The notes beneath the pieces are model-generated. The model made no database searches and was not told where the DNA came from. It saw only the letters and a list, made by a program, of their open reading frames with translations. The position numbers and the translations under genes were made by a program. From NCBI GenBank assembly GCA_035444565.1, contig DAOMOX010000001.1:386335-450334 (forward strand): a DNA stretch of 64,000 nt. Direction: 5' to 3'. The stretch comes from Candidatus Dojkabacteria bacterium. Lineage in GTDB: Bacteria; Patescibacteriota; Dojkabacteria; B142; OLB20. Of this stretch, positions 4,014 to 51,069 are shown piece after piece (the first letter of the stretch is position 1; every line of letters starts with the position of its first letter).

Positions 4014-4106
4014 CTAATGACTGTCAGGAGCAAATATACAATAATCTGACATCCGTTTGCTATCATAAAAATATGAGTATAGAATGTTGTTATATCAATT
4101 TTCACC

Positions 4107-4871: not shown

Positions 4872-4976
4872 GTAAATATTTGTTTCATCTTTGCTTTGTG
4901 ACGCAAATTCGAAAACAATGTCTTGACATATCCTAAAAATTTTCATAAAAACCCCAGAAAAATCTGATTTAATAGG

Positions 4977-6512: not shown

Positions 6513-6513
6513 G

Positions 6514-7089: not shown

Positions 7090-7458
7090 GACCAATTTTA
7101 TCACAAATACCCTCCTACAAGGGATAATCAAAATAAAATATAAGAAAAAAATCACAATAAATTTGTATTGTCTTGTCTAGCATAAATATCGGTTTCTCGA
7201 ATGTTAAAAGTCTTGGTTATAGAGGTGTTATAGATATCTGTCATTGGAAACCTCTTTCAGGCAAGACTAGAGGTGGTTTGGATTATTCTGCTGAACTGGG
7301 GTATGTTAAAAATATAGGCGCAGTATACGAAGGGTGTAGGGTTACTATAACGCTTATTTGATAGGTCTTTACTTGACAAAACTCTAGAAATTTAGCACAC
7401 TCTAAACATATCCTAGTTTTCAAACCTGGGAAATCTCTAAGAAAGGAGGTAAATAAAA

Positions 7459-7731
7459 ATGAACAAAGCAGATTTAGTAGCTAAAGTTGCCAGCAAAACT
7501 GGTCTAACTAAAAAAGCCGCTCAAGACGCAATGGAAGCTTTAATGGAAGCAGTTATGGTAGCAGTTTCAAAAGGTGATTCTGTTACTTTGACAGGTTTCG
7601 GTACATACAAGGCCTCTAAAAGAGCAGCAAGAAATGGAAGAAATCCACAAAGTGGACAGGTGATTAAAATCCCTGCAAGAACAGTTCCTGTATTCAGACC
7701 TGGTAAAGAATTTAAAGAAATGGTCAAATAA
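7459..7731 (+). CDS. hup: DNA-binding protein HU
   Basis: 'MNKADLVAKVASKTGLTKKAAQDAMEAL...GFGTYKASKRAARNGRNPQSGQVIKIPARTVPVFRPGKEFKE'. Strong RBS 'aaggaggt' 8 nt upstream. Confidence 0.92.
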   Translation: MNKADLVAKVASKTGLTKKAAQDAMEALMEAVMVAVSKGDSVTLTGFGTYKASKRAARNGRNPQSGQVIKIPARTVPVFRPGKEFKEMVK

Positions 7732-7763
7732 TCTAAGAGTACAATTTTTTGAATTAAGTACAA

Positions 7764-7796
7764 CCGCCTTCGTTTTCGAGGGCGGATTGTTTTCTT
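7764..7796 (+). terminator. rho-independent terminator downstream of hup
   Basis: Hairpin CCGCCTTCG-TTTT-CGAGGGCGG followed by ATTGTTTTCTT. Confidence 0.6.
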
Positions 7797-7854
7797 GACA
7801 TCCCCACCCTAAGTGCTAATATCTCTTCTGGTATTTAATTATTAGATCACTATA

Positions 7855-9096
7855 TTGACTGATATTATTTCTCTTTCAGCCTTACTACTCGCTATTTTTA
7901 TTGGAATAATACGACCTAAGGTTAACATAGGGGTAGTCAGTATAGTTTTTGCATTAATTATTGGAATTTTGATTCTTGGTATAAAAGAGAAGGAAGTAAC
8001 AAGTCTTTTTCCTTCTAATTTGTTTTTGATGCTAGTTGGAATCACGCTATTTTTCGGTATCGCATCAACTAATGGTTCACTCTCAAAACTTACCGATTCT
8101 TTAATCTCCCGAGTAGGTGGTAAAACAAAATTACTACCAATTTCAATCTTTGTTCTAACCTTTGTATTATCTGCAATAGGACCCGGAAATATCGCAGCTA
8201 CTTTACTGATTGCACCAGTAGCAATGCAACTTTCTGCCAAGTCGAAAATAAGCCCATTGCTTATGGCTATAATGGTTGCCACTGGTGCCAACGCAGGTGC
8301 ATTTTCCCCTGTTGCTCCGACTGGTGTTGTTAGCACAGGGTTAATACAGAAGATCGGCGTCATGGATATTGACTTGCCACTCAAAATATTTATTGGAACT
8401 GCAATAATTCAGTCATTAAGCGCCATGTTGGCATATGTTGCCTTCAAAGGATATCTTTCTAGTAAAAGTATAGATATAGTCCATAAAGTTGAGAAATTTA
8501 CTAGAAAAGACAAAATTACAGTTTTTTCCATTTTATTGCTGGTCTTTTCTGTGATTGTACTAAAATTACCTATAACTGTGGTTGCATTCGGCTTGGCAAT
8601 AGTATTATTGATATTTAATGTTGGAGATTCAGAGAAAACAATAAAACAAATTCCTTGGGATGCAATACTTCTTGTTACTGGAGTCACTGTTTTAATCGGT
8701 GTGATGGAGAAAGGAGGAGGACTTGACCTTGCGACTGATTTGATAGCGAAAATTGCTTCGGTGGACAATATAAACGGGATTCTTTCTATAACCACTGGAG
8801 TTATTTCAGCTTATTCAAGTTCAAGTGGAGTTGTCATGCCGGCATTTATTCCACTAATTCCATCAATCATAGAAAAAATTGGAGGCGGAAATATTACTGA
8901 GATGTTAATTGCAGTTAATGTCGGTTCACACATGGTTGACGTATCACCTTTGTCTACACTTGGAGCTATTTGTATAGCTACGGCTCAAATTGATCAAGTT
9001 GAAAAAGGTAAACTCTTTCGAAACTTAATGATATGGGGATTAGCAATGGCTGTTTTTGGATCCTTGGTCATATATGTTCTCCTCGATTTACTATAA
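7855..9096 (+). CDS. polytopic membrane permease, ion-transporter superfamily (CitMHS/ArsB/NhaD-like) with internal two-fold repeat
   Basis: 413 aa and about 12 predicted TM segments. N- and C-halves are similar, with Gly/Ser/Ala-rich re-entrant-like segments 'ATGANAGAFSPVAPTG' and 'AVNVGSHMVDVSPLSTLGA'. Confidence 0.55.
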   Translation: MTDIISLSALLLAIFIGIIRPKVNIGVVSIVFALIIGILILGIKEKEVTSLFPSNLFLMLVGITLFFGIASTNGSLSKLTDSLISRVGGKTKLLPISIFVLTFVLSAIGPGNIAATLLIAPVAMQLSAKSKISPLLMAIMVATGANAGAFSPVAPTGVVSTGLIQKIGVMDIDLPLKIFIGTAIIQSLSAMLAYVAFKGYLSSKSIDIVHKVEKFTRKDKITVFSILLLVFSVIVLKLPITVVAFGLAIVLLIFNVGDSEKTIKQIPWDAILLVTGVTVLIGVMEKGGGLDLATDLIAKIASVDNINGILSITTGVISAYSSSSGVVMPAFIPLIPSIIEKIGGGNITEMLIAVNVGSHMVDVSPLSTLGAICIATAQIDQVEKGKLFRNLMIWGLAMAVFGSLVIYVLLDLL

Positions 9097-9158
9097 GAAT
9101 CTACTGGCTTAATATTTCGCTACTTGGATAGATAATTCTGCTGTATAATTACAGTGTT

Positions 9159-10223
9159 ATGAAGATATTAGAACTCAATGTAAAAAACAAAAAAAGTGTT
9201 ATCGATGAAGCGGTAGCAGTTTTTAAAAACGGTGGACTTGTTGTATATCCAACCGAAACCTGCTATGGCGCAGGAGTGATGGCTACGAATGAAAATGCGG
9301 TGAAAAAATTGTTGAAGTATAAGAAAAGACCTTCGGGAAAAGCAATTAGTATCGCTGTTGCTAATATTGAAATGGCAAAAAGTTATGTAATCATCAATAA
9401 AACAGCAGAAAGTGTTTACGAGAAATTTCTACCAGGACCTGTCACAGTTGTTTCGGAATCGAAAAATAATGTTGCTGATGGAATTGCATCAGAGTTTAAT
9501 ACTCTTGGAGTGAGAATTCCAAACTTTGAGTTCATGTTGGATGTTATCGAAGAACTCGGCTCGCCAATAACTGCAACATCAGCAAATTCTGCCGGTAAAA
9601 AAACGCCATACAATGTTGCAGATATTCTTGATAATTTGTCAGAAAATCAGAAAAGTTTAATTGATTTAATAATAGATGCAGGTCAACTACCTAAAAATCC
9701 CCCATCGACGGTAGTTGATACAACTCGAGAATCGATGCAAATCTTAAGAGAAGGGAGTCTTGATATTTCAAAGGATGGATTATTAGTAACAAGTGAAGAG
9801 GAAATGCGTGAACATGGTGAAAAATTTATGGAAAAGAACTTTTCAGCTTTAACAGAAAAAGGTTTGTTAATCTTTCTTAACGCAGAGTTGGGAGCGGGAA
9901 AGACACAATTTGTAAAAGGTATTGCAAAAAGTATGGGAATCGAAGAAGTAGTAAAGTCTCCCACCTATTCGATTATGGAAGAGTATGATGCACCAAGGGG
10001 AAAATTAATCCATATTGATACTTGGAGGTTGACAAATATCTCCGAATTGAAGCAACTTATGATTAGTAAATATTTGAAGAAGGGTTCTGTTATCGCTATA
10101 GAGTGGTCGGCAGGTGTTGAAGAGTATTTTAATGAAATGGCAAATGCGAAAGGAATAAAAACTGTAAAAATTGATATTAATTATATCGACGAGAACAAAA
10201 GGAGGTTGATGATATGGGATTGA
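9159..10223 (+). CDS. tsaC-tsaE: fused L-threonylcarbamoyladenylate synthase (TsaC/YrdC domain) and t6A ATPase TsaE (YjeE domain)
   Basis: N-terminal YrdC/Sua5 fold 'GGLVVYPTETCYGAGV...KKRPSGKAISIAV'. C-terminal TsaE motifs 'LGAGKTQFVKGIAKSMG', 'SPTYSIMEEY' and 'HIDTWRL'. Overlaps tsaD by 10 nt. Confidence 0.8.
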   Translation: MKILELNVKNKKSVIDEAVAVFKNGGLVVYPTETCYGAGVMATNENAVKKLLKYKKRPSGKAISIAVANIEMAKSYVIINKTAESVYEKFLPGPVTVVSESKNNVADGIASEFNTLGVRIPNFEFMLDVIEELGSPITATSANSAGKKTPYNVADILDNLSENQKSLIDLIIDAGQLPKNPPSTVVDTTRESMQILREGSLDISKDGLLVTSEEEMREHGEKFMEKNFSALTEKGLLIFLNAELGAGKTQFVKGIAKSMGIEEVVKSPTYSIMEEYDAPRGKLIHIDTWRLTNISELKQLMISKYLKKGSVIAIEWSAGVEEYFNEMANAKGIKTVKIDINYIDENKRRLMIWD

Positions 10224-11299
10224 AATCTACAAAACCAATAATCCTGGGGATAGATACTTCGTGTGATGAGACATCCGCTGGAGTTACTCATGGAGACGCT
10301 GTCCTCTCAAATGTCATCTCGTCACAAATTGATTTGCACAAAATATGGGGTGGGGTAGTCCCCGACATTGCGCGAAGGGCTCATCAAGAAAGAATTGATG
10401 AAGTCATCGAAAAATCTTTAATACTAGCTTCTAGAAATTTCAAAAAGAAAATTAATCTAGAAAATGTTGATGCTGTTGCGGTGACATATGGACCGGGCTT
10501 GGCAATTGCTTTGGAGGTTGGGATAGAAAAAGCGAAAGAAATCTCTAAAAAATATAATAAACCCTTAATAGCAGTAAATCACTTGGAGGGGCATCTTCTG
10601 TCTGCAATGGCAAAGGATAGTTTAGGGGAAAAAGGCCTAACATTATCAAAAAGAGATTTCCCTGCGCTTGGCCTTATTATTTCGGGTAAACATACTGAAA
10701 TTGTTTTGGTTAGAAATATTGGTGATTATGAAGTAGTTGGAGAAACTCTTGATGATGCCATTGGTGAAGCTTATGACAAGGTTGGTAGAATGTTAGAATT
10801 GGGTTATCCTGCCGGTCCCATTGTGACCAAATTTGCAAAACTTGGTGATTCTTCAAGGTTTTCACTTCCTATTCCCATGCGTAATAAAAAGGATAGCCTG
10901 GATTTCAGTTTCTCGGGGTTAAAAACAGCGGTATATTACATGATTAAAAAAGATCTTGGGGATATGTCTAAACAAGATGTTTACGATATGTGTGCGAGTT
11001 TCGAGAATTCTGCAATTCTACATTTACAAGACAAATTAGAATTGGCGATTAATAAATATAACCCCAAACTGATTTTAGTTGGTGGGGGTGTTGCCTCAAG
11101 TCCAAAAGTAAGAACCTCTATCAGAAAAACTACCCATAATTTCGGTCTCAAGGCATACTTCCCCAACTCAAACAAGCTTTACATGGACAACGGAGCAATG
11201 ATAGGGTTGGTCGCCTCAAATAAGTACGTTAACAAAGATTTTGTGGCAAACCTTATAGATCTCGAAAGAGAACCAAGAGCTAGTTTGAATAAACCGTAA
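10214..11299 (+). CDS. tsaD: tRNA N6-adenosine threonylcarbamoyltransferase TsaD (Kae1/Gcp family)
   Basis: 'ILGIDTSCDETSAGV' and metal-binding 'AVNHLEGHLLS'. ASKHA fold throughout. Confidence 0.9.
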   Translation: MGLKSTKPIILGIDTSCDETSAGVTHGDAVLSNVISSQIDLHKIWGGVVPDIARRAHQERIDEVIEKSLILASRNFKKKINLENVDAVAVTYGPGLAIALEVGIEKAKEISKKYNKPLIAVNHLEGHLLSAMAKDSLGEKGLTLSKRDFPALGLIISGKHTEIVLVRNIGDYEVVGETLDDAIGEAYDKVGRMLELGYPAGPIVTKFAKLGDSSRFSLPIPMRNKKDSLDFSFSGLKTAVYYMIKKDLGDMSKQDVYDMCASFENSAILHLQDKLELAINKYNPKLILVGGGVASSPKVRTSIRKTTHNFGLKAYFPNSNKLYMDNGAMIGLVASNKYVNKDFVANLIDLEREPRASLNKP

Positions 11300-11337
11300 T
11301 AACTATTTTTGTCAAAACAAAACTGCTTGTTATTCTA

Positions 11338-13239
11338 TTATAGACATTTATTCCTCATCTCAATGCTCATTGGTGAGCCATTTTCAACGAAATCGTTATA
11401 ATCGTCTAAACACACCTGACAGTCTGGCGAGTTGTTTGTACATAAATCACAGACTTTGTAAAAACTTAGATATTCGCAGACATTTGACTGAGTGTAATAA
11501 TCTTCTGAAGTATAGTCATCATAGTCGTAATCCTCATCATAATTATAGTCTGGGTCTTCAAGGGATGGTTCATCAAGATTAATTTGGTCTTCATAGGGTG
11601 GCTCGACAAGATTAAGTGCGTCTTCTTTCAATAATCCTTGTAAATCCATAAGGGTTAAGGTGGTGGGATTTTCAGGTGTTTCTATTGGAGCAACCATTTT
11701 CATCCCTGTCATCTTGAACTCAAAAAGACCTTTAACATTATTACCACTCTCTTCAATTTCGAAATCATATGCCACCTTTACTGGGTAACTTTCAAGCTTA
11801 GCGAAACATAATGTCAACTCAGATTTTTTCATTGGGAATTCCAAATCATTCATTTGGTCATATTCTTCTTCGTTGAAGTTCTCGTCATATAATTTCCCGG
11901 CTTCCTTGTAAATATTTATTATATTTTCTTTCGTCAACGACATCACATAGCATCTGGCATTTGTTTCGGAAACTTTCTCATCGAAACTGTTGGTAATTGA
12001 ATTTTGTACAGCAGGACTATTGATTAGTTGAATCACTTTATCGTAATCTTCTTTTTTTAGCTCTGTTTGGTCTTGACTACCAAATTCTTCTAGTAATTCT
12101 TCGGGGTTATATAGGTTTGCTTCTATACCTGCTTCTTTAGCCAATGTCTCTGGATCGAGCATAAACCATTTTCCTTCTATTTCCTCAACCTTTACGTAAT
12201 CATTTCGTGGGAAACGGTCAAGGTTGAAGTAAATAAGTTTATCAAGGATTCTAGTTTCAAAACCTGTATTAAGATTTACACCTGGAACTTCAAATTCCAC
12301 ATTAGTAATATTTCTAGCTCGGTCTTGATTGTTGAATTGTACTGAGTCTTGAGAGGTAAATGTGATTTTCCCTTCCCTAGAGGATAAAATTTTATTAATA
12401 CTATCTTCGTTAATTTCTCCTGGATCTTTCAATCCAAGTACAGGTTGTAGTGATTCTGCCAAAGTATATTGTAAAGATAATGATGTGTCATAATTAATTT
12501 GCTCTGCGGTTTCAACCTCTTCAATAATTTTATCCGCTCCGATTGGTTTTATGTCTTGTGGATCAAAGTCTGGTTTAAAAGGGGTATTATCCATGGTTAA
12601 AGCTTTATACATTCCAAGATCAAGCAAGTACTCCACCCTTGTGCTAAATTGTTCACCTTCTGACAATAAAACGGATTCCGTCAGTCCCGACACTAGTGGA
12701 ACATGATTCTCTTGTAGATATTTTGCTCCAAAAACAGCAACTGAAAGTGTCGCCAACACAACAAATACTAATACTACAATAATCAATATTTTCATAAATT
12801 TGGGTAGTCCTTTTTTAGGGATTACATCAGTATTGGGCATAGGTGTTTGTTGGTTTTCATTTAGAACAGGACTATTGATTGAGGTATTCATTGCTACGTT
12901 TGTATTTGCTTCCCGCGGTGTATTCTGCGGAGCATAGCTTGTTATGGGACTTGTCTGTTGAACACTATTTGTATTTTGAACAGGATTTTCTTGAGTTGCG
13001 GGTTGTTGCTCAATAAGCGGATTTTGAACAGGTTCGCTTTGCACAGTTTTTGTCATTTCCTCTGGTATAGCATCCGTGACTACATTTTGGTTTTGCATAG
13101 GACTCGTCAAACCAGGTGACGATGTGATTTGTGGGTTTGTAGGGTTAGGGGTGTTTGTGTTTCCAGAAAGTGTGGGGTCTAGTGATGAATCGGAATTATT
13201 TGTACCTTGTGTACCACCATAAGGATTGGATGTGTTCAT
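11338..13239 (-). CDS. hypothetical single-pass membrane protein with low-complexity N-terminus and acidic Tyr/Asp- and Cys-rich C-terminal tail
   Basis: 633 aa. N-terminal ~140 aa is Q/N/P/T/S-rich low complexity. TM 'ILIIVVLVFVVLATLSVAVFGA'. C-terminal 'DPDYNYDEDYDYDDYTSEDYY' is followed by 8 Cys in 45 aa. Confidence 0.6.
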   Translation of the reverse strand: MNTSNPYGGTQGTNNSDSSLDPTLSGNTNTPNPTNPQITSSPGLTSPMQNQNVVTDAIPEEMTKTVQSEPVQNPLIEQQPATQENPVQNTNSVQQTSPITSYAPQNTPREANTNVAMNTSINSPVLNENQQTPMPNTDVIPKKGLPKFMKILIIVVLVFVVLATLSVAVFGAKYLQENHVPLVSGLTESVLLSEGEQFSTRVEYLLDLGMYKALTMDNTPFKPDFDPQDIKPIGADKIIEEVETAEQINYDTSLSLQYTLAESLQPVLGLKDPGEINEDSINKILSSREGKITFTSQDSVQFNNQDRARNITNVEFEVPGVNLNTGFETRILDKLIYFNLDRFPRNDYVKVEEIEGKWFMLDPETLAKEAGIEANLYNPEELLEEFGSQDQTELKKEDYDKVIQLINSPAVQNSITNSFDEKVSETNARCYVMSLTKENIINIYKEAGKLYDENFNEEEYDQMNDLEFPMKKSELTLCFAKLESYPVKVAYDFEIEESGNNVKGLFEFKMTGMKMVAPIETPENPTTLTLMDLQGLLKEDALNLVEPPYEDQINLDEPSLEDPDYNYDEDYDYDDYTSEDYYTQSNVCEYLSFYKVCDLCTNNSPDCQVCLDDYNDFVENGSPMSIEMRNKCL

Positions 13240-13366
13240 AATATTGTATTAATTTAATACTTTATGATACATAGAAAAGATACCTATGACAAAAATTTCT
13301 TAAATTTTATATAGGCGTGACTATAATCAACTTTAAAAAAGACATTTTAACTCGTCGGAATTTAAG

Positions 13367-14623
13367 TTATTTGCCAATATACTCTTTTCCAAAATAAGGA
13401 ACGAGTGCTTTCGGAATCCTAATTGATCCGTCTTTTTGTTGGAAATTCTCCATGATTACAATTGGAATTCTTGATGTAACTAAGGCTGTTCCATTTAACA
13501 TGTGTACATATTCGTTTCCTTTTTCAGTTTTTACTCGGATGTTAAGGTTTCTAGCTTGAAAATCATCGGTATTCGATGTTGAGGTTATCTCTCCATAGTC
13601 ACCTCTGCCAGCCATCCATGCCTCAAGATCGTATTTTCTTGATGCAATTGCACCTAAATCACCACTACACATTTCTAATACTCTATATGGAATCTCAAGC
13701 GCTTGAGTTAGTTCTTCCTCTACTCTTAAGATTTCTTGGTGCATAGCTTCAGAATGTTCTGGCAGACTGTAAATGAACATTTCTAATTTAGTGAATTGAT
13801 GTACTCGATACAATCCTTTCGAGTATTTTCCATAAGCACCTGCTTCTTTTCTAAAGCAGTGGGAAACTGCAGCATACTTGAGTGGTAAATCTTCAGCTTT
13901 CAAAATCTCATCTGCGTGTAATCCCGCCATTGTGACTTCTGCAGTTGCGATTAAACCCAAATCTTCTCCGTCAATCTCGTATATTTGAGCTTCATCGCCT
14001 TTTGGTGCATAACCAGTCCCTAGATAAAAACGAGATTTTGCCATATCAGGGGTCATCACAAGTGTGAAGCCTTTTTGTTCTAAGAAGTTAATTCCAAATT
14101 GAAGTAATGCAAGCTCAAGTCGAACAGCATCATTTTTTAGAAAGTAGAACTGAGAACCACTAACTTTAGCTCCAGCTTCAAAATCTAACATATCGTGGAT
14201 TTTCCCTAATTCGATGTGGTCTTTAGTTTCGAAATCGAAATTTGGGATTTTTCCTACTTTACGAAGCTTTACATTATCATCCTCATTTTTTCCAATTGGA
14301 ACTTCGGGTCTGTGTATGTTCGGGATGTTGTTAATTAGCTGATTCCACTCGCGTTCAAGCTCAACTAAATCATCTTCGACTGATTTTATAGCATCTTTAA
14401 TTTTCTTCCCTTCTTCGCGCAGTGCTTCAAAGTCATTTGATTCCTTGCCTGTCTTTGCAAGTGTGTTTTTTTGTTGGTTTAAGTCTTCAAGTCTAGCTTG
14501 TGCCTCCATAAACTTCTTGTCGACATCCAACCATCTCTCTACAACCTGTGGATCCATTCCTCTTTCTGTTGTATTCTTCTTTACCAACTCCTGATTTTTT
14601 CGAATAAATTTTGGATTTAACAT
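13367..14623 (-). CDS. serS: seryl-tRNA synthetase
   Basis: N-terminal coiled-coil tRNA-binding arm and class II core motifs. Full length 418 aa. Confidence 0.95.
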   Translation of the reverse strand: MLNPKFIRKNQELVKKNTTERGMDPQVVERWLDVDKKFMEAQARLEDLNQQKNTLAKTGKESNDFEALREEGKKIKDAIKSVEDDLVELEREWNQLINNIPNIHRPEVPIGKNEDDNVKLRKVGKIPNFDFETKDHIELGKIHDMLDFEAGAKVSGSQFYFLKNDAVRLELALLQFGINFLEQKGFTLVMTPDMAKSRFYLGTGYAPKGDEAQIYEIDGEDLGLIATAEVTMAGLHADEILKAEDLPLKYAAVSHCFRKEAGAYGKYSKGLYRVHQFTKLEMFIYSLPEHSEAMHQEILRVEEELTQALEIPYRVLEMCSGDLGAIASRKYDLEAWMAGRGDYGEITSTSNTDDFQARNLNIRVKTEKGNEYVHMLNGTALVTSRIPIVIMENFQQKDGSIRIPKALVPYFGKEYIGK

Positions 14624-20738: not shown

Positions 20739-21509
20739 ATGAATCTAAGAGAATTATACCTCAAGTTGAAGTTAAGTTTTTCTGCAGTCACCTTACTGAT
20801 TGTAATAAATGTTTTGTTTTTTGTGCTTAGTACAATAATCGGCTCATTTATAGGTTCCACAAGTGCATTGAGACTCCTTGGTGCAGAATATGTACCTGAT
20901 ATTCTTAGTGGTGAATATTGGAGGCTTGTGATGCCTGCATTTTTACACGCAGGAATCTTCCACTTGATATTAAATATGTGGGCACTTTATCATCTAGGAG
21001 GTGCTATCGAGACATTTTATGGACATGGAAAAGTATTGGTGGTTTATGTAATTACTGGGTTTTTCGGTTCGTTGTTTAGTGTTATTGCTTCTCTTTCACA
21101 GATTTATTTCTCTCAAGGAAGTGATGGATTTTCAATCTCAGTCGGATCTTCAGCAGCTGTATTCGGTTTTGTTGGGTTATTAATTGGTAATAAATTCAAA
21201 AAAAACACTTTCTCGGTAAGTATTGATAATTATATTAATACCTCTCAACTCTGGTTTTTTGTGGGTGTAAACATACTTTTCGGTCTTGGCGTAAACTTCA
21301 TGGGAAGTGGTTTCGCGATTAACAACTTCGCGCATATTGGCGGATTTCTTTCTGGTTTGGTTTTGGGAGTTATTCTTGATTTAATAAATACAACCTATCA
21401 GAGCAAATCAAAGAGTTTTATTGAAAAATTTTTATTTGTATTCGCATCCGTTCTGATTATTTTGAGTTTAATAGGACAATCAGTGTATATTTTTACAAGT
21501 ATTTATTAG
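20739..21509 (+). CDS. rhomboid-family intramembrane serine protease
   Basis: Catalytic Ser motif 'GSSAAVFG' and His motif 'AHIGGFLSGL' in TM helices. 6-7 TM. Confidence 0.8.
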   Translation: MNLRELYLKLKLSFSAVTLLIVINVLFFVLSTIIGSFIGSTSALRLLGAEYVPDILSGEYWRLVMPAFLHAGIFHLILNMWALYHLGGAIETFYGHGKVLVVYVITGFFGSLFSVIASLSQIYFSQGSDGFSISVGSSAAVFGFVGLLIGNKFKKNTFSVSIDNYINTSQLWFFVGVNILFGLGVNFMGSGFAINNFAHIGGFLSGLVLGVILDLINTTYQSKSKSFIEKFLFVFASVLIILSLIGQSVYIFTSIY

Positions 21510-26407: not shown

Positions 26408-27416
26408 AGAAATAACAGACAAAACTTATTGGGAAGAATTCATTTCTAGTAGCGGTTTCAAAACAAGCTTTTTCCAATCATGGGCGTGGGGAGAATTTGA
26501 AAAGTCACTTGGAAAAAATGTAGTCAGAATGGGATTTTATATCGAGGAAAATATTGTCGCAATTGCACAGGTGGTAGAAGTAAATGCAAAAAGAGGAAGG
26601 TTTCTACATGTTCGGAACGGACCAGTAACGGACTGGGACAATGATGAAATTGTCGAGGAACTATTAAAACATCTGAGGATTATTGGGCAGGAGTTTAATG
26701 TCGATTTCTTAAGAATAAGCCCTCATGTTAAACATGAAAATTTTAATGCGAAGATCTGGAAGGAGAGAGGATTTGTTCAAAACCAAATGCATGATGTGGA
26801 TGCAGAGATAACATGGGTATTGGATTTAACGCAGGATATTGTAACCATACTTCAGAATATGCGAAAAAATACTCGATACTATATACGCAAAGCGGAGAAA
26901 GAAGGAGTTAAAATTCATAAAAGTAGAGATATTAATGATTTAGATAAATTTTATAGCGTTTATGACGATACTGTAAAAAGACAACAATGGAAAGCTTACA
27001 GCCATGATTATTTACGGAAAGAATTTGAAATTTTTTCGCGAGAAGGAGAGATTGCAATATATTTGGCCGAGTACCAAGGGAAGATTATTGCAGCATCATT
27101 ATTTATCTATTATCTCGGAGAGACTTTTTATCACCATTCAGGTTCCCTTACTGAATATCAAAAGATACCCGCCTCGTATCTTCTTCAATGGGAGTCAATC
27201 AAGGATTCAAAAGCGAAGGGGATTACCAAATACAATTTCTTTGGAATTGCCAGAGACGATAATTCTAAACATCCATGGGCTGGACTTACTTTCTTTAAGA
27301 AAGGTTTCGGTGGTGAAGAACAAAGATGGATGCATGCTCACGACCTACCAATAAAGCCAAAATACTGGTTTACATACTTCTACGAACTCTTCGAAAGAGT
27401 AAAAAGGGGGTATTAA
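26397..27416 (+). CDS. FemAB-family aminoacyl-tRNA-dependent peptidyltransferase (peptidoglycan bridge formation-like)
   Basis: 'FFQSWAWGEF' N-terminal signature. GNAT-like duplicated fold of the appropriate length (339 aa). 11-nt overlap with the upstream Mur ligase gene. Confidence 0.65.
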   Translation: MVHKEITDKTYWEEFISSSGFKTSFFQSWAWGEFEKSLGKNVVRMGFYIEENIVAIAQVVEVNAKRGRFLHVRNGPVTDWDNDEIVEELLKHLRIIGQEFNVDFLRISPHVKHENFNAKIWKERGFVQNQMHDVDAEITWVLDLTQDIVTILQNMRKNTRYYIRKAEKEGVKIHKSRDINDLDKFYSVYDDTVKRQQWKAYSHDYLRKEFEIFSREGEIAIYLAEYQGKIIAASLFIYYLGETFYHHSGSLTEYQKIPASYLLQWESIKDSKAKGITKYNFFGIARDDNSKHPWAGLTFFKKGFGGEEQRWMHAHDLPIKPKYWFTYFYELFERVKRGY

Positions 27417-28033
27417 TCCCTTTTGCTATGACTTTTATGTGGTTTCCCTGCTTGTAATACATGTCCTAATGTTGTGAATGTTGTACCGAATACAACTCCG
27501 CTTAGGAAAGCGATAAGAAGGAACATATATAAGTAAGCAGATGACTCAGTTTCGGTAGACTTAGGCTTTTCAGTTGTGGTTCCAAAAAGTAAAAATGCTT
27601 CCCCGCTATCTTCTTTGAAAACACCATCAGGACCCATGTATGAGTTTCCCTCTGTTTTGGTGATTCTTAATTGAGAAAGGTTATCTTCTCTTTCAACTGT
27701 GAAAACACCTAAAACATCTCCGTATTCGAACACATCAGTGGCATTAGCAATATCAACACAGACTTTGGTTTCAGTAAATTTATTGTTTTCTTCATCACAC
27801 ACACCAATTGATAGAAGTCCATCATCTCCAGCACTGAAACTTGTGATTGTTCCACCTTGAACTTCAAGTCTAAGCTGGACAGCAGTGCTATTCATATCGG
27901 GACTAGCAAGAACAATGAATGTTTGTAATTCACTCGTTTTTTCACTCTGGGATTCCACCGTAACAGCTTGTGAGCTTTGTGTAAAAAGTGTTAAAGATAC
28001 TACTGTAGCTAGGGCAAAGAAGAACTTTTTCAT
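27413..28033 (-). CDS. secreted protein with C-terminal membrane anchor, paralog family member A
   Basis: Signal peptide 'MKKFFFALATVVSLTLFTQSSQA'. Conserved core '...GGTI...IGVCD...C.DIA' shared with 28053-28670 and 39516-40154. C-terminal TM followed by 'KPHKSHSKRD'. Confidence 0.6.
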   Translation of the reverse strand: MKKFFFALATVVSLTLFTQSSQAVTVESQSEKTSELQTFIVLASPDMNSTAVQLRLEVQGGTITSFSAGDDGLLSIGVCDEENNKFTETKVCVDIANATDVFEYGDVLGVFTVEREDNLSQLRITKTEGNSYMGPDGVFKEDSGEAFLLFGTTTEKPKSTETESSAYLYMFLLIAFLSGVVFGTTFTTLGHVLQAGKPHKSHSKRD

Positions 28034-28052
28034 GGCAGTTTTTAAAAATAAA

Positions 28053-28670
28053 CTAATTAATTTGGTCTTTTGGTTCTTTACTTGAAAAGAAAATAATCAC
28101 AAGGAAAGCACCTACTAACACTACTAAGATACCAATAAGCAAAACAAATGGCAAGGAATTTGATTCGTTGACCACTTCTTCCTCGATAATCGGTTCTGGT
28201 AGTTCCTCTAGGGTATTGATTGAGTATGATTCAAGAACAACTCCACTCTCATTTATCAAATCTCCGTTAATTGTAAGATATGCATGATCAGGATTCGCGG
28301 AGAAAACTGGTTCAATCCCGGGTTGTGTTTCCACTGTGACTTTTAATAGAACTTGATCAGTTTGTATCAAATCTTTTTTTGCAGCAATTTCTATACAGAT
28401 GTTCTGCTCAAAATAGGATTCGTTATTGTCGCATACTGGGATATAACTAAGATTTACATCATCACTATAAGCTACGTCAATAATCGTTCCTCCATCTACT
28501 TTTACACGAAATTGCACAGCCGAACTATCTTGGGTAGGTTCTGCAAGGATGTTGTAGACTTTAGTGTTATCTTGTTCGCTGACTAATTCTGCAGTTAATG
28601 CATTCACTCCAACAGTGAAGAACAATACCGAGAATAGAATTGAGAGACTTAGTGAAAAAAGAAAACGCAT
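28053..28670 (-). CDS. secreted protein with C-terminal membrane anchor, paralog family member B
   Basis: Signal peptide. 'VKVDGGTIIDVAYSDDVNLSYIPVCDNNESYFEQNICIEIA' aligns with member A. C-terminal TM 'LLIGILVVLVGAFLVIIFF' followed by 'SSKEPKDQIN'. Confidence 0.6.
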   Translation of the reverse strand: MRFLFSLSLSILFSVLFFTVGVNALTAELVSEQDNTKVYNILAEPTQDSSAVQFRVKVDGGTIIDVAYSDDVNLSYIPVCDNNESYFEQNICIEIAAKKDLIQTDQVLLKVTVETQPGIEPVFSANPDHAYLTINGDLINESGVVLESYSINTLEELPEPIIEEEVVNESNSLPFVLLIGILVVLVGAFLVIIFFSSKEPKDQIN

Positions 28671-28725
28671 ATTAAATAGTTAAAATATATATAAATCAGT
28701 ATAAACAGAATATTTTATAAAGAAA

Positions 28726-28754
28726 AGACCCTTCTTTCTGAAGGGTCTTTTTTA
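28726..28754. terminator. bidirectional rho-independent terminator between the beta-helix giant gene and paralog B
   Basis: AGACCCTTC-TTTCT-GAAGGGTCT flanked by A-run and T-run on both sides. Lies immediately 3' of the minus-strand 1380-aa gene. Confidence 0.6.
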
Positions 28755-28771
28755 ATTCTATTTAACTTACT

Positions 28772-31700
28772 TTAAAGAGCACAAGAAGCTTTATTGTATC
28801 TTTGTGCAAAACTTTGGAAGTCAACTATGTCGACCTTTCCTAGTTTGTCTACATCTTTTCCTCCACACTCTCCATAGCTAATATGGTCAGTTTCCGTATC
28901 ATCACAAAGTTTCTGATAGTAGGAAGCAAAACCAACTTGGTATCCACCAAAATCGTATATGCTAAACCATCCATCTCCATTCACATCCGCTGGTCCACAA
29001 ATGAATCCTACTAATGGGTTTGTCGGTGTAACTGTTGGTTCCTCTGATACTATTGGAGTATCGCTAGGAACAGGAGTATCACTTGGGACAGGAGTATCAC
29101 TTGGTACAGGTGTATCGCTTGGTATAATTGTCCCTGTAGGTGTATCACTAGGTATAATTGTTCCTGTAGGTGTTAGTGTAGGTGTTGGTGTGTTAGAACT
29201 TGTGACATCAGGTCCGGTTACTGTGAAATCCGAGGTGCAGGTATTGATTTTTGTATTGGTACCTGTCTGCACTTCCGCTGTATTTGTGATTACATCACCT
29301 TTTTTACCCTTGATTTTCATAACATATGCAATTCTCTTAACTCCTTCAGGTACTTTACACTCTAGGTAGTTACCTGTTATCAAAGCTGGAGTATCACCTG
29401 GAGAGACATCCTCTTTGGTCATGAGGAAGTAGAAACCTCCGATTAATAATACTACACCTGCTATTACTAATCCCCCTAGATAAGGTTTTTCTTTTAGTGT
29501 TGAATTAGTAATACTATCTTTATTTTTGTAAAGAATGTAATAGGTTACTCCACCAGATAGTATTGAGAAGAGTATGAAACTAAACAGTACTGATCCGCGG
29601 GAAGTATAGACATCGGATATTCCTAGTACCGCTGATTGAACTTCTTGTGTCTTGAGTTCACAATATTTTGGTTTTGATACTAGTTCCATCTTTTCACTTA
29701 AGTCATCTCTTACGAGTACTGTTCCGTCAGGTCCAGGTGCTAGATCGTTCAAGACGACCTTGTATTTGACCTGTTCACCAGTCCATAGTTTGCTTGGTAA
29801 TTCCTGAACTTTTCTACATGTCAAAGCAGTAATGGTTGCAGGAGTGGGTGTTATTGATGGGCTAGGTGTTGTTGTTGGCTTCTGAATCACATTAAATGTG
29901 TATGTAGGACAGTCAGTGGTCATTCCACTACTGACGACTCTGGAATTAACTAAGATTGGAGTTCCAGGCGTTACATTGTCTTTAACTTTCAAATTAATTG
30001 TTAATGCGCCTCCAGTTAAGTTACATGTGTACTTATCTCCTGCCTCTGTCTTAGCAAAAGTACAAGCAGGGTTAGGGTTAGAGCCCATGTCTGTAGGTAC
30101 TTCTAGTTGAGTCGGTATGAAGAAATGTAGTGTGTGAGAGACTCCTTCATTGAAAGGTACTTTTGTATTTAGGTATGTCTGAACACCAATTCTGTTTCCG
30201 GGATAAGGATCATCATAATTGGTGTTTAATGTAATATTCCTACATTCAGCAGGTAAGTCTAACCTATCCAAATCGCTTACCGAAGTACTGGTTGATGCAG
30301 CTTCTTCTAAACTTGCTTCAGATCCATAAGAGACTGGAATCTGGAGGCTTTCAATGTCGGTGGATGCTTTTGTTGTAGTTGTATCTCTTTCGCATCTCTC
30401 AAAAGGAGTGGTTGAGTTAGGATTGAAATTACAAATGTAGTTCTCAATTACACCCAAGAACTGTGTTAAATATGACTGACTCATTTTCTTTTGGGTTCCT
30501 GAGTCAAAGACGTATGAATTTGATGAGAAATAATTATCTTTTGAAACATTTCTATCATCACTTTTCCATGGGGAACATGTGCTTACTCCTGGTTCCGTCG
30601 GGTAGGTGACACATTCGATTGACCAAAAGATATATGGTGGTGTTTTTGCATCCAAGACGTTTGTAAGGGTACGATATGCACCTTCTCTATAGTAAGTGGT
30701 GGTTTCAATCGATTGGATAGTGCTTACATTAGGTGCACCGACCTTACTCGCTTCCGTAAATGTCCAGTCTGTACAACTTGCAACATCTTGATTATCTAGA
30801 ATGTCACAACTCCTTGTATAGACTGTTTTCCCATCTTGAGAGAGGGCGGTATAGTAAAGGATGTTCCTTGTTAAATCATAATTTTCATACTTGCCGATTC
30901 TGTGGTCAATATCTAGTGATCGTAATTTTGAAATCACTAAATCGCCTGTTTGGATTTTTAGTGATTTTACTGAATGTTTTGTCCAAACTTCATCTTGGTA
31001 AGTGAAGTTGTTACACTTTGTAAAATCAACACCATCTGCTTTACTCTTGTCCATATTACAGCTTCTGTAGTAGAAGTTTTCTCCAGCACTATCGAGTACT
31101 ACTTGGGAGAAGTTGTCTGCTTGTGCTACAGGAGTTACAGGTGGCGTTACTACAACAGTAGGAGGTACAGTCGTTGTAGGAGGTATTGTGGTAGCAGGTG
31201 GAGCAACCGTAGTGGTAACAGCTTGAGCTAGTACCTCGGCCTGAATATTATCGTAATAATAACCCAGATTGTATGTATAATTCATTTCAGGCTTTAGAAC
31301 TATTCTAAAGCTTGTCGTATTTATATCTGTAGATGCAGGAATCTTAAGATCAAAAGTGTAAGTCTTCCAGCTTGCCGTCAAGGCTGTCTTTGGAATAGGA
31401 ATTTGTTGTAACCATCCAGACCCAACAGGGTGTTCTCTTTGTATGTATAGACCTTCTAGAGCTGGTGGTGGTTGATGATCACTGCTAGTGCTATGTGCTT
31501 TTGCGTTGAATTTTACTCGAATTGTTCTTCCACTTAAGTTTTGTCCTGTTTCAATCCAATGAGTAGAGAAATCAGTCTTGGTTTTATCACCATCTAGTTT
31601 TCTACCCAATGTAATATATTTCTTTCCATCGGAGCAAGGACCCCATTGATCGCAATCATGTACCTGAGTAAATGAAGTATCTACTCCTGCTCCATATGAC

Positions 31701-32914
31701 CAGCTCTTGTAGTCACCCCACTCAAAGGAAGAGTTCAAGATGATAGGTTTGAGTTCGGGAGAGCAATCACCTCCCGGACATGAGTTCGGTCCCCCATAAA
31801 CACCCAAATCAGATCGAGAGCCGTTCAAATCTTTAATGTTTGGGTCTCCGGCGTCGATGGCAGGGGAACCGGCTTGCAGTGCGAAGTTTGTTGCGCTTAC
31901 AAATTTAGGGTCTGCGTGGAGTGAGTCACAAAATTCATTAACACCGCAACTAGTGCCTTCCCCAGCATTCCCAAAGGTTAAATTGTACGCAAATTTGTCA
32001 TTTTCCTTAAAACCTGGAGTTAGTAAGTTGTATCCTCCGATCCCAAAGCCAAAAGAATTGTCAGTGTTTTTCTTATTATTGGTTAAGATGTTATTTAAAA
32101 CTGTAACACTTGGGTTATGAACGGCACCCTGATATATAGTAATACCTGATACTACATTAGAAGAAATAATATTATTTGTGATTAATGCATTTGAATTTTC
32201 AGACAAATAAATTCCATCATTTGGATTCGAAGTAATGATGTTATTAAAAATAGTTGTTTTGGAATTCTGATATGTTCGAATCGCAGCACCAATATTGTTA
32301 GAGAATGAGTTGTTTCTAATGGTGGCCTTGGCATTCATAGAAATTGAAATTCCATATCCAAGTCCACATGTATTCGTATTACTCTCAAAACAACTATCCT
32401 CATCTGTTTTCATTCCTATTATTTTTAAACCTTCAATATTAATGACTCCTCCATGTACGACAATACCTGAAAGTGTATGAGTACTATTAGTCCCATCAAG
32501 AACTACAGAACCTTCGCCTTTTAATGTTAATGTTCTGATAGAGGTTTCAGGAATGAAAATAAAAGCTTTGAACTTTTTTTCAATGGATTCCCCATACGGT
32601 GTATAATTATATGGTGTATATCCTGTTCTTTTGTATGTCCCAGCTTTCAATAATATAGTATCGCCACTTTTTGCTGCATCAACTGCTCTCTGGATATTAT
32701 CACCACCTACATATTGACAACCATTTTGTCCTGCTGTTCCTGTTGCACAAACAGTAATCAGGTTAACAGGCGTAGTCGCAGCTTCACTATCCTCCTGCTC
32801 TGTCCGCTCCGACAAATACCGAGCCAAAACTAGTGTGAAAATCATGAATAAGAAGAGGAACAAGACTAGCAATATAGTTACTATTTGCCTTCTTTGGAGA
32901 TTTGTCTTAAGCAC
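28772..32914 (-). CDS. giant surface protein with N-terminal signal anchor, right-handed parallel beta-helix (pectin-lyase-like), two internal TM helices, Pro/Thr-rich tandem linker and C-terminal dockerin-like domain
   Basis: 1380 aa. N-terminal TM 'IVTILLVLFLFLFMIFTLVLA'. Beta-helix repeats 'NNIITSNPNDGIYLSENSNALITNNIISSNVVSGITIYQG'. Mid-protein TMs 'VLFSFILFSILSGGVTYYILY' and 'LGGLVIAGVVLLIGGFYFLMT'. Repeats '(PSDTPV)n/(PTGTIIPSDT)n'. C-terminus 'DVNGDGWFSIYDF' plus 'DVDKLGKVDIVDFQSFAQRY' matches two dockerin Ca-binding repeats. Confidence 0.8.
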   Translation of the reverse strand: MLKTNLQRRQIVTILLVLFLFLFMIFTLVLARYLSERTEQEDSEAATTPVNLITVCATGTAGQNGCQYVGGDNIQRAVDAAKSGDTILLKAGTYKRTGYTPYNYTPYGESIEKKFKAFIFIPETSIRTLTLKGEGSVVLDGTNSTHTLSGIVVHGGVINIEGLKIIGMKTDEDSCFESNTNTCGLGYGISISMNAKATIRNNSFSNNIGAAIRTYQNSKTTIFNNIITSNPNDGIYLSENSNALITNNIISSNVVSGITIYQGAVHNPSVTVLNNILTNNKKNTDNSFGFGIGGYNLLTPGFKENDKFAYNLTFGNAGEGTSCGVNEFCDSLHADPKFVSATNFALQAGSPAIDAGDPNIKDLNGSRSDLGVYGGPNSCPGGDCSPELKPIILNSSFEWGDYKSWSYGAGVDTSFTQVHDCDQWGPCSDGKKYITLGRKLDGDKTKTDFSTHWIETGQNLSGRTIRVKFNAKAHSTSSDHQPPPALEGLYIQREHPVGSGWLQQIPIPKTALTASWKTYTFDLKIPASTDINTTSFRIVLKPEMNYTYNLGYYYDNIQAEVLAQAVTTTVAPPATTIPPTTTVPPTVVVTPPVTPVAQADNFSQVVLDSAGENFYYRSCNMDKSKADGVDFTKCNNFTYQDEVWTKHSVKSLKIQTGDLVISKLRSLDIDHRIGKYENYDLTRNILYYTALSQDGKTVYTRSCDILDNQDVASCTDWTFTEASKVGAPNVSTIQSIETTTYYREGAYRTLTNVLDAKTPPYIFWSIECVTYPTEPGVSTCSPWKSDDRNVSKDNYFSSNSYVFDSGTQKKMSQSYLTQFLGVIENYICNFNPNSTTPFERCERDTTTTKASTDIESLQIPVSYGSEASLEEAASTSTSVSDLDRLDLPAECRNITLNTNYDDPYPGNRIGVQTYLNTKVPFNEGVSHTLHFFIPTQLEVPTDMGSNPNPACTFAKTEAGDKYTCNLTGGALTINLKVKDNVTPGTPILVNSRVVSSGMTTDCPTYTFNVIQKPTTTPSPSITPTPATITALTCRKVQELPSKLWTGEQVKYKVVLNDLAPGPDGTVLVRDDLSEKMELVSKPKYCELKTQEVQSAVLGISDVYTSRGSVLFSFILFSILSGGVTYYILYKNKDSITNSTLKEKPYLGGLVIAGVVLLIGGFYFLMTKEDVSPGDTPALITGNYLECKVPEGVKRIAYVMKIKGKKGDVITNTAEVQTGTNTKINTCTSDFTVTGPDVTSSNTPTPTLTPTGTIIPSDTPTGTIIPSDTPVPSDTPVPSDTPVPSDTPIVSEEPTVTPTNPLVGFICGPADVNGDGWFSIYDFGGYQVGFASYYQKLCDDTETDHISYGECGGKDVDKLGKVDIVDFQSFAQRYNKASCAL
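29055..29168 (-). repeat. in-frame tandem nucleotide repeats (18-nt and 30-nt units) encoding Pro/Thr/Ser/Asp linker of the 1380-aa protein
   Basis: Plus strand 'ggagtatcgctaggaaca / ggagtatcacttgggaca / ggagtatcacttggtaca / ggtgtatcgcttggtataattgtccctgta / ggtgtatcactaggtataattgttcctgta'. Confidence 0.8.
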
Positions 32915-38635: not shown

Positions 38636-39499
38636 TTAAATTGGGGCTTGGATGTTATTGTTCTCACCAAATCCAAAGAAATATCCTTTCTCAAGCGAGA
38701 CCTTTTCGATATCGATAGTATAGTCAACAACTTCAAGTCGATTATTAACTGTTATCGTGGCTTTCTTTGTAACTTGTTGGCTAAGTTCATTAATGGTTTT
38801 ACTACTGGTTACAATCTGTTTGTAGTCAGTACCTCTAGTCGATTCTTGAATAGATTTCTCTTGTTGAGATTTTACTTCATCTACCACCCTAATCAGTTTT
38901 GATTGGCCAAATCTTGGTTTACTATCTAGGTTCCAGTTTCCAGAAGAATTCAAAACATAAAGGTTGTCGGCAATATGGATTGTGGTAGCAGGAGGTTTAG
39001 AAATGAATGAGCTTTCACAAATTTCGGCATAATAACTATTATATTCCTTGTCAGGGTTATCGCTTTCTAGATAATTTCCATAGCAATTACGGTCTTTGTA
39101 AGAAGTAAAAACTGAATTAGATTTAAAATTGTTCTTTTCAAGAGCTACAGTTCTTGCAGTATCTATCATTTCGTCTACATCGCAATTTCGGAAACAGTCT
39201 AATCTTGCATTATCTGTTTCTTCTGGAGACTGAGTTGGTTTCAGTGATGGCTTAATGGTCGCTACTGGAGAAGTATTTGCGCTCCTAGTTGGTAATACAA
39301 GAGGAGTTGTAGGCTTGTCGTTTCCGGCTGATGCTAGAGCAACAATGAGTAGTAAAACATTTAACACGATGCTTATTACAAGCATTATCGCTAAATTTCG
39401 TGGCTTCAGGATAGTAGTTTTTAAGCTGGGCAATTCTGTTCCAGAATGATTTTCGTCAGTAGCAATATTGTTTAGTTCAATTTTTGAGGAAATTGACAT
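38636..39499 (-). CDS. hypothetical N-terminally anchored extracellular protein
   Basis: TM 'LAIMLVISIVLNVLLLIVALASAG' followed by a P/T/S-rich linker and a Cys-containing globular region. Immediately downstream of paralog C. Confidence 0.5.
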   Translation of the reverse strand: MSISSKIELNNIATDENHSGTELPSLKTTILKPRNLAIMLVISIVLNVLLLIVALASAGNDKPTTPLVLPTRSANTSPVATIKPSLKPTQSPEETDNARLDCFRNCDVDEMIDTARTVALEKNNFKSNSVFTSYKDRNCYGNYLESDNPDKEYNSYYAEICESSFISKPPATTIHIADNLYVLNSSGNWNLDSKPRFGQSKLIRVVDEVKSQQEKSIQESTRGTDYKQIVTSSKTINELSQQVTKKATITVNNRLEVVDYTIDIEKVSLEKGYFFGFGENNNIQAPI

Positions 39500-39515: not shown

Positions 39516-40154
39516 TTATAAAAGTTCTCGTCTTTTATCTAGTAAGAAAATTTTAATTGCAACAGCTAAGCTCACTATTCCGGAGATAAGAATGGCACCA
39601 CCTAGTATGCCTCTGCTTGGCATATAATCTGATAGTGCTGTATTTGGAAGAACTGTAACATTACTACTTGTTCCGAAAACATATGATCCTAATACGCCAC
39701 TCTTGGGTTCTGTGAGGACACTTCCGGTTACATAACCATTTTCTTCACCACCTTCTATTGTGAATGTACCACCTGATGAGCTCAGGCTTGCAACAGTGAT
39801 TGAGCCTAGTGCTGTTCCGTTTGTGATGGGGCTGCTTGTACTTGCAAGGTCTACACATACTTCGTATTTAGTAGTGCTTATAGATCTTGAGGTAGATCCG
39901 TTTGAGTCACAGACTCCTATTGACAGTAGATTCCCACCTGATCCGCTAAAACTAACTACTTTTGCATTATTAACGATAAGTCGAATTTGTATAGTAGTTG
40001 TTGGCGTGTTTGAGTTTGAAGTGATATTTATTGTTTTGTTCCCTGAGACTGGAAATGTTCCGCTACCAGGGGACAGAGTCAATGCTGACAAACTTACAGG
40101 GTTCAGAACCAAAGCTGAAAGTGTCAATATTATGGTGATTAATAATTTTTTCAT
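39516..40154 (-). CDS. secreted protein with C-terminal membrane anchor, paralog family member C
   Basis: Signal 'MKKLLITIILTLSALVLNPVSLSA'. 'VVSFSGSGGNLLSIGVCDSNG...YEVCVDLA' aligns with members A and B. C-terminal TM 'ILGGAILISGIVSLAVAIKIFLL' followed by 'DKRRELL'. Confidence 0.6.
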   Translation of the reverse strand: MKKLLITIILTLSALVLNPVSLSALTLSPGSGTFPVSGNKTINITSNSNTPTTTIQIRLIVNNAKVVSFSGSGGNLLSIGVCDSNGSTSRSISTTKYEVCVDLASTSSPITNGTALGSITVASLSSSGGTFTIEGGEENGYVTGSVLTEPKSGVLGSYVFGTSSNVTVLPNTALSDYMPSRGILGGAILISGIVSLAVAIKIFLLDKRRELL

Positions 40155-51067: not shown

Positions 51068-51069
51068 TT

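Follow-up and report, generated by a model that had tools for sequence, protein, structure and literature searches.

A 64,000-nucleotide stretch of a Candidatus Dojkabacteria genome (contig DAOMOX010000001.1 of assembly GCA_035444565.1, positions 386,335 to 450,334; hereafter the window) encodes three small secreted proteins with a predicted cohesin-like fold, together with a large envelope protein that ends in a dockerin-like module. The small genes are named par1 (27413..28033, 206 amino acids (aa)), par2 (28053..28670, 205 aa) and par3 (39516..40154, 212 aa), and the large one the giant (28772..32914, 1380 aa). All four are on the minus strand, and the three small open reading frames (ORFs) are present where the first-pass annotation, a reading of the DNA by itself, had placed them. 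That annotation tentatively took them for a paralogous family of membrane-anchored, cohesin-like receptors of the dockerin, or else for small adhesins or pilin-like proteins.

The giant is directly upstream of par2, which is separated from par1 by 19 nt. The 100-nt gap between the giant and par2 contains a hairpin of 14 pairs (AAAAGACCCTTC...GAAGGGTCTTTT, 28721..28753) that is flanked by A and T runs and forms a terminator- or attenuator-like element readable on both strands. Because this strong hairpin has A/T runs on both sides, "bidirectional terminator-like" is apt as a description of the sequence, and the proposed layout, with par2 and par1 directly downstream of the giant and beyond such an element, is correct.

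The three small proteins are indeed paralogs, with identities of about 27-32%: BLASTP aligns par1 with par2 at 6e-18 (32% over 145 aa), par1 with par3 at 7e-12 and par2 with par3 at 1e-6. Each begins with a signal peptide, as had been claimed, in the form of a hydrophobic N-terminal leader with an AXA-like site (SQA/V, VNA/L and LSA/L, respectively). In par1 the leader (residues 1-22) ends in this site and is followed by a cohesin-like beta-sandwich (residues 23-152, 27578-27967), a variable linker of 16 aa, and a conserved, polar-rich transmembrane (TM) helix, YMFLLIAFLSGVVFGTTFTTLGHVLQA (27449-27529), with a basic tail after it. The par2 protein has a cohesin-like domain at residues 25-152 (28215-28598), an acidic linker, and a highly conserved TM helix, SLPFVLLIGILVVLVGAFLVIIFFS (28083-28157), with a short Lys-containing tail; the linkers tethering par1 and par2 are 16-19 residues long. 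In par3 the cohesin-like domain (residues 24-162, 39669-40085) is followed by the pentapeptide LPNTA (39636-39650), a 9-aa spacer, a TM helix and the tail DKRRELL. The Cys pair predicted earlier is also found, each paralog having exactly two Cys (79/92, 80/92 and 82/100 in par1, par2 and par3). Among 123 aligned members of the family, C92 never varies and the conservation of C79 is at least 90%. A single disulfide probably staples the beta-sandwich of each paralog. The core motif that had been proposed for all three proteins is only partly shared: its "GGTI" element is present in par1 and par2 but is replaced by NNAKV in par3.

None of the paralogs has a match in Pfam or NCBIfam, and word-indexed homology searches return metagenomic orthologues only (16 for par1 and 23 for par3, with P0017 common to both). 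A profile of the domain alone, run against 1.8 billion cluster representatives, finds 209 proteins at E<1e-3, of which 76 reach E<1e-10. Most of the proteins found are 190-240 aa long and have the domain at residues ~24-155, the same architecture as the paralogs. One candidate, the Vibrio cadherin-repeat protein P0040 (31 short matches), is a repeat-driven false positive. Literature searches turned up no earlier account of the family and none of cohesin-dockerin systems in Saccharibacteria.

Modelled with AlphaFold2 from an alignment of 35 sequences that covers all three subfamilies, par1 has a mean pLDDT of 84; its core (residues 23-150) exceeds 90 and is all-beta, and a C-terminal helix spans residues 162-195. 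When this model is compared with the PDB using Foldseek, cohesin modules occupy 23 of the top 24 places, with a probability of 1.00. The best matches are 2jh2 (E 9e-5, TMt 0.65) and 2vo8 (TMt 0.69), followed by type II and type I cellulosomal cohesins, while generic Ig-like, reeler and DsbD-alpha folds appear only below about the 24th match. The fold comparison that the first-pass annotation had proposed thus puts cohesins first for par1, and the domain is a predicted beta-sandwich of about 130-150 aa that can be superposed on solved cohesins. The paralogs are best described as a new sequence family with a predicted cohesin-like fold; membership of the Cohesin family cannot be shown, and the more cautious term is used because none of the 123 family members matches Pfam Cohesin (PF00963).

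The C-termini of the three proteins had been described uniformly as a TM segment with a basic tail. Each protein does have one hydrophobic helix there, but a plain membrane anchor does not describe par3, whose C-terminus (LPNTA-LSDYMPSRG, TM helix, DKRRELL) is an LPXTG-type sorting signal missed in the earlier reading. Only par3 combines an LPXT[G/A] motif with a hydrophobic helix and a positive tail; par1 and par2 have no such motif. The notion of membrane-anchored receptors therefore holds for par1 and par2, which have C-terminal TM helices, but not for par3, which by its sequence signal would be a sortase-type wall-anchored protein. These terminal regions are better conserved than the ectodomains. 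Among par1 orthologues, identity is 0.71 in the TM helix versus 0.60 in the ectodomain, and GTTFTTLGHVLQ in the helix is invariant in 13 orthologues; among par2 orthologues the values are 0.70 versus 0.40; and among par3 orthologues the sorting motif (0.84) and the TM helix (0.75) both exceed the ectodomain (0.58), the stretch LPNTAxSDYMPxxG being 84% identical among 21 orthologues. The conserved tails of par1, par2 and par3 were considered as a potential new sorting signal, but in the available DNA they are not found on other proteins, each being confined to its own orthologue group. The conservation of the par3 anchor fits recognition by a sortase, and that of the par1 and par2 helices suggests specific helix-helix contacts or a processing step, possibly involving the TM pair of the giant.

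Sorting signals are frequent in the wider family, which extends across the Candidate Phyla Radiation (CPR). Among 147 representatives, 65 end in an [LIV]PxT[GAS]-like motif followed by a TM helix, 39 have a TM helix only, about 18 are fused to a dockerin-like module, and 25 lack a TM helix or are fragments. An LPXTG-like motif plus TM helix is the commonest ending, and LPNTA the commonest motif. The Pfam model Gram_pos_anchor matches 9 of 123 relatives (best 4.9e-5), and one Dojkabacteria member of the family is named LPXTG anchor protein in UniRef. Sortases have been reported in more than half of CPR genomes (PMC6744442).

A separate observation concerns the par1 helix, in which helix-destabilising or polar residues (G, T, H and Q) are invariant. 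At a distance of 6 kb, and in conserved synteny, there is a rhomboid protease gene (20739-21509). Rhomboids typically act on type I single-pass proteins whose TM segment has helix-destabilising or polar residues. That par1 might be a rhomboid substrate is pure speculation from these sequence features.

The giant consists, in order, of an N-terminal signal-anchor, a right-handed beta-helix (residues ~170-285; Pfam Beta_helix 1.3e-16, NosD 1e-9), a long Cys-paired extracellular region and two TM helices; a small domain and a Pro/Thr linker come next, and the dockerin-like module ends the protein. The internal TM helices (residues 1107-1128 and 1143-1168, 29411-29596) are joined by a short basic loop and split an ectodomain of ~1070 aa from an extracellular tail of ~215 aa; by the positive-inside rule, the dockerin-like module would lie outside the cell. 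Orthologues of the giant occur in three related contig loci (L001, L003 and L006 of a set labelled L001-L017). Its TM region, LG[IV]SDxY...G-TM-KNK...PYL-TM-[KR][ED]DVSP, is kept in L003 and L006, and its architecture looks as though a C-terminally anchored protein had been joined to a signal-anchored one. A derivation of its anchor region (LGISDVYTSRG plus TM helix) from a par3-type sorting signal was considered and rejected, as the alignment scores only ~1.5 standard deviations above shuffled sequences, which is not significant.

The dockerin-like module comprises the last 80 aa of the giant (28775..29014, minus strand). It contains two tandem EF-hand-type loops, DVNGDGWFSIYD and DVDKLGKVDIVD, with a helix after each, which is the arrangement expected of a dockerin at a protein terminus. 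The loop DVNGDGWFSIYD fits DxNxDGxxxxxD exactly, while DVDKLGKVDIVD is degenerate at position 5. Conserved Cys bracket both repeats (C-x30-C and C-x27-C). A profile of the module run against PDB sequences has the dockerin 2y3n_B as its top match; EF-hand proteins and other dockerins, such as 4fl4_A and 4wi0_B, come after it. In a word-indexed protein database the profile retrieves two fragments only. The AlphaFold2 model of the module (pLDDT 88, pTM 0.77) is matched by Foldseek to 16 structures, 12 of which are dockerin chains of cohesin-dockerin complexes; the top match is again 2y3n_B (probability 0.96, TMt 0.68), with E-values that are 0.12 at best, weak because the module is short. Pfam Dockerin_1 (PF00404) matches 8 of 13 related modules (best 1.4e-5) but scores the module of the giant itself below its cutoff. 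The earlier identification of a dockerin is thus supported, though weakly by sequence: it agrees with the PDB profile, the predicted fold (at weak E-values) and the Pfam matches of relatives, but not with the Pfam score of this copy. Together, sequence and model suggest that the terminal module of the giant is a dockerin-like, Cys-bracketed module that falls short of a certified Pfam dockerin.

Close relatives of the locus share much of its surroundings. A profile search of contigs with the par1-only alignment finds just two loci in metagenome-assembled genomes (MAGs); the two NCBI MAG contigs among the close relatives are labelled uncultured Candidatus Saccharibacteria. Both flanks are shared: GluRS and genes resembling transglutaminase and PPDK lie on one side, whereas the other has FemAB and a Mur ligase. 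The order of a dockerin-bearing giant followed by par2 and par1 is kept in L001, L003-L005 and L006, and L009 encodes a 741-aa dockerin protein with one paralog. In L015, which is on the same contig as L007, the interval between GluRS and FemAB (2463-14237) contains three dockerin-bearing genes in a row and then par2-like and par1-like genes. The trio encodes a 1075-aa protein, a 1380-aa S8 peptidase with FG-GAP, and a 986-aa protein that combines an N-terminal cohesin-like domain, a beta-helix and a dockerin. The locus thus varies by gain or loss of dockerin proteins (one to three), the small paralogs staying in place, and the GluRS-FemAB site appears to be a hot-spot for this class of dockerin and cohesin-like genes.

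More distant CPR contigs show the same association in unrelated contexts. In L013 (9394-15112), three tandem small cohesin-like genes, one with a TM helix only and two ending in LPNTA, are followed by two further genes, one for a beta-helix protein of 757 aa whose end is dockerin-like and one for a dockerin-like protein of 133 aa. In L017 (9218-12444), an LPNTA-anchored cohesin-like gene is divergent from two genes that each encode Kazal, cohesin-like and dockerin modules. L016 (8300-13963) encodes an M4 peptidase and amidase protein with both modules. Such fusions of a cohesin-like domain and a Cys-bracketed dockerin-like module in one polypeptide occur in about 18 of the 147 representatives, the dockerin-like module being at the C-terminus, with beta-helix/NosD domains, a thermolysin-type M4 peptidase plus Amidase_2, or Kazal domains between the two. 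These two-module proteins look like scaffoldins or adaptors. In some relatives only one dockerin-like repeat is present.

The expectation that the family tracks dockerin-like modules is therefore borne out by adjacency (in the window, L001, L003-L006, L009, L015, L013 and L017), by its recurrence in unrelated contexts and by fusion, but not without exception, since L011, L012 and L014 contain solitary LPXTG-type members with no dockerin in the surrounding DNA (10 kb to either side in L012; shorter stretches in L011 and L014, where the contig edge intervenes). Adjacency among close relatives is weak evidence alone because the whole region is syntenic; expansion of the locus, adjacency in unrelated contexts and fusions are stronger evidence.

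On balance, and with modest confidence, we favour the reading that the three paralogs are surface sockets for the dockerin-like modules of large envelope proteins. Each paralog would be exported through Sec, fold into a beta-sandwich of ~130 aa with one disulfide, and be held at the envelope by its C-terminus. Most likely, par3 would be cut by a sortase and joined covalently to peptidoglycan, as for the anchoring scaffoldin ScaE, whereas par1 and par2 would stay in the membrane through their conserved TM helices. The ectodomains would then receive Cys-bracketed, Ca-binding dockerin-like modules at the C-termini of large envelope proteins, the first candidate partner being the adjacent beta-helix giant; in relatives, S8 and M4 peptidases, an amidase and Kazal inhibitors would be candidates. 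The result would be an assembled enzyme complex on the surface of an episymbiotic CPR bacterium, formed in cis or between neighbouring molecules. As the giant has a membrane anchor of its own, binding would serve to organise a complex and not merely to retain the protein.

Several observations weigh against this reading. Homology to cohesins would rest on one predicted fold with moderate TM-scores: searches of PDB sequences with profiles of 3 and of 123 sequences found no cohesin, in line with the lack of Pfam Cohesin matches, and generic Ig-like folds are also present, lower down, in the Foldseek list. On the dockerin side, the module of the giant reaches 15.1 bits against a Pfam cutoff of 22.9 (E 0.027), and its fold-search E-values are weak, as noted above. 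The par3 signal is matched by neither Pfam nor NCBIfam anchor models, and the 64-kb window contains no sortase detectable by Pfam and no TLxTC motif in plausible ORFs. Moreover, the giant is already anchored in the membrane, so that the need for an extra anchor is not obvious; par3 and the giant are 6.6 kb apart, with housekeeping genes between them; family members occur without a dockerin nearby; and in close relatives synteny includes the housekeeping genes, so that adjacency may be inherited rather than selected. The hypothesis of a membrane-anchored cohesin-like receptor thus survives in its fold, its dockerin-like partner and the association of the two, but lacks a Cohesin sequence match and does not describe the anchor of par3.

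Many of these points would be expected if the paralogs were generic Ig-like beta-sandwiches of the cell surface, acting as coat, spacer or host-contact adhesin, with a coincidental likeness to cohesins and a proximity to the giant that reflects the clustering of envelope genes. The missing Cohesin match, the Ig-like, reeler, DsbD-alpha, adhesin and BslA folds among the structural matches, the solitary members in L011, L012 and L014, the distance of par3 from the giant and the broad synteny of the region all agree with this explanation. It does not readily account for cohesins occupying nearly the entire top of the fold matches, for module fusion in about 18 of 147 representatives, for adjacency in at least three unrelated genomic contexts, or for a locus that grows specifically by dockerin-bearing genes, and we regard it as unlikely, though it is the most serious of the alternatives.

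A different role for par1 and par2 is suggested by their anchors: they may be subunits of a membrane complex in which their helices pair with the TM pair of the giant, the ectodomains being structural or chaperone-like. The TM helix is the best conserved part of both proteins (71% versus 60% in par1, 70% versus 40% in par2), the par1 helix contains the invariant polar residues GTTFTTLGHVLQ, the TM pair of the giant and its flanks are conserved in orthologues, and the close lineage always has the three genes together. However, such a complex leaves unexplained the dockerin fusions and adjacency seen across the family, as well as the members with a sortase signal in place of a conserved TM helix. 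As a replacement for dockerin binding we consider it improbable; it is compatible with dockerin binding, and both ideas can coexist. Still less probable, to the point of being hardly credible, is that the paralogs are pilus components, either sortase-polymerised pilins or parts (tip, anchor or chaperone) of a donor-strand pilus of the Pam type. This idea can draw on the LPXTG-type signal of par3 and many relatives, and on the Pam pili of Saccharimonadia, whose subunits are Ig-like and whose accessory proteins are anchored by a C-terminal TM helix (bioRxiv 10.64898/2026.03.03.709456). Yet the pilin motif (WxxxVxVYPK) was not found in the window or in any locus, no sortase is present in the window or was seen beside the family members examined, and the single beta-sandwich of par1 is complete in a high-confidence model, with no strand missing. 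Its fold matches cohesins and not CnaA/CnaB or Pap-like pilins, and Pam pilins are two-domain proteins of 39-55 kDa encoded in an operon near ATP synthase genes, a context that differs from this one. The pilin-like alternative raised by the first-pass annotation is accordingly set aside, there being no YPK motif, no incomplete sandwich and neither a pam nor a sortase-pilus operon.

The proposed sockets for dockerin-like modules have a close parallel in ScaE of Ruminococcus flavefaciens, a single-cohesin anchoring scaffoldin that receives the dockerins of larger proteins, including a peptidase (PMC12484212). Like ScaE, which has a type III cohesin and an LPXTG motif, par3 and the commonest form of the family combine a signal peptide and one cohesin-type sandwich with a short linker and a C-terminus made up of LPXTG-type motif, TM helix and basic tail. 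Unlike ScaE, the present family has no detectable sequence similarity to any cohesin, the par3 motif is LPNTA and not LPXTG, and par1 and par2 rely on conserved TM anchors where ScaE has a sortase signal. The setting also differs, as the organism, an ultra-small CPR bacterium, shows no sign of a plant-cell-wall cellulosome, and the candidate partners are beta-helix proteins, peptidases, an amidase and Kazal proteins rather than cellulases. The best structural matches of the par1 model are cohesins of Clostridium perfringens glycoside hydrolases (2jh2, 2vo8, 2w1n). In C. perfringens, cohesin and dockerin modules assemble secreted enzymes outside cellulosomes. Those modules are inside large multidomain enzymes and recognisable by sequence, whereas the cohesin-like module described here is mostly alone on an anchor and invisible to Pfam.

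The module of the giant resembles canonical dockerins (PF00404, 2y3n_B) in having two EF-hand-like Ca-binding loops plus helices within about 70 aa and in its C-terminal position on large extracellular proteins, as canonical dockerins have on enzymes. It differs in that a Cys pair brackets each repeat (CG..D.N.DG......D...F...Y...C), which suggests two disulfides, and in that the degenerate second loop of the window copy, DVDKLGKVDIVD, goes with a Pfam score below the cutoff. The Pam pilus (PamA/B pilins and TM-anchored PamC/D/R) is CPR-specific and found in Saccharimonadia (bioRxiv 10.64898/2026.03.03.709456). Its components share with the paralogs Sec export, Ig-like domains, paired cysteines and, in some cases, a C-terminal TM tether, but differ in size, domain number and operon context, and Pam assembles by donor-strand exchange, whereas the cohesin-like sandwich here is complete. 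The paralogs have neither the two-domain pilin or PapD-like chaperone architecture nor a pam operon near ATP synthase.

Other genes of the window include further ones for membrane or candidate envelope proteins. A 287-aa type II membrane protein is encoded 17 nt downstream of par3 (38636..39499, minus strand); it has a Pro/Thr-rich stalk and an extracellular domain of ~190 aa with six Cys, and it matches nothing in Pfam or NCBIfam. L007 and L009/L010 keep this pair of genes, and the 287-aa protein could be a functional partner of par3. On the plus strand, an ECF-type sigma factor gene is followed immediately by a gene for a 1773-aa alpha-2-macroglobulin-like protein (A2M, bait region and MG domains; 50495-56391 for the pair), a combination also found in L007. 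A protease-trap protein is notable beside dockerin-tagged peptidases and Kazal inhibitors in an episymbiont. A 567-aa protein (2310-4013, plus strand) that contains a CarboxypepD_reg/PEGA-like Ig domain and weakly matches a model of an anammox S-layer glycoprotein is another candidate envelope protein. Two tandem paralogous genes (58153-59298 and 59386-60528, plus strand) encode polytopic membrane proteins of ~380 aa with Cys-rich C-terminal domains and are preceded by small hydrophobic ORFs (57071-57388 and 57438-58088); none of these has a Pfam match. A tRNA-Ser gene (56742-56830) is upstream of the tandem membrane-protein genes, a position that may mark an island. Finally, an Mrr-type restriction endonuclease domain is fused to a topoisomerase-type zinc ribbon (61095-61763, plus strand).

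Most CPR envelope proteins are unannotated, and to our knowledge little has been established about how ultra-small episymbiotic CPR bacteria organise their surface or attack and attach to their hosts. What is new here is the occurrence in CPR of sequence-divergent, probably Cys-stabilised modules linked to peptidases, an amidase, beta-helix proteins and inhibitors instead of cellulases. A broader proposal, tentative and in our view doubtful, is that Patescibacteria (at least Saccharibacteria-like bacteria and Dojkabacteria) possess a divergent, disulfide-stabilised cohesin-dockerin system of their own, in which sortase- or TM-anchored sockets and two-module adaptors would recruit beta-helix proteins, S8 and M4 peptidases, a peptidoglycan amidase and Kazal inhibitors into an "attack complex" that attaches to and breaches the host envelope and does not digest plant fibre. 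If the paralogs are sockets for dockerin-like modules, a function could be assigned to many "hypothetical" CPR surface proteins (about 200 clusters at 50% identity), and the cohesin-dockerin principle would reach a new superphylum and a non-cellulolytic purpose. The window itself would provide testable pairs, three sockets and one plug, which could serve biochemical work, genetic studies in cultivable Saccharibacteria and, as orthogonal parts, the engineering of protein display. Should the modules not bind, the family would still be a defined and widespread set of sortase- or TM-anchored surface modules of CPR bacteria.

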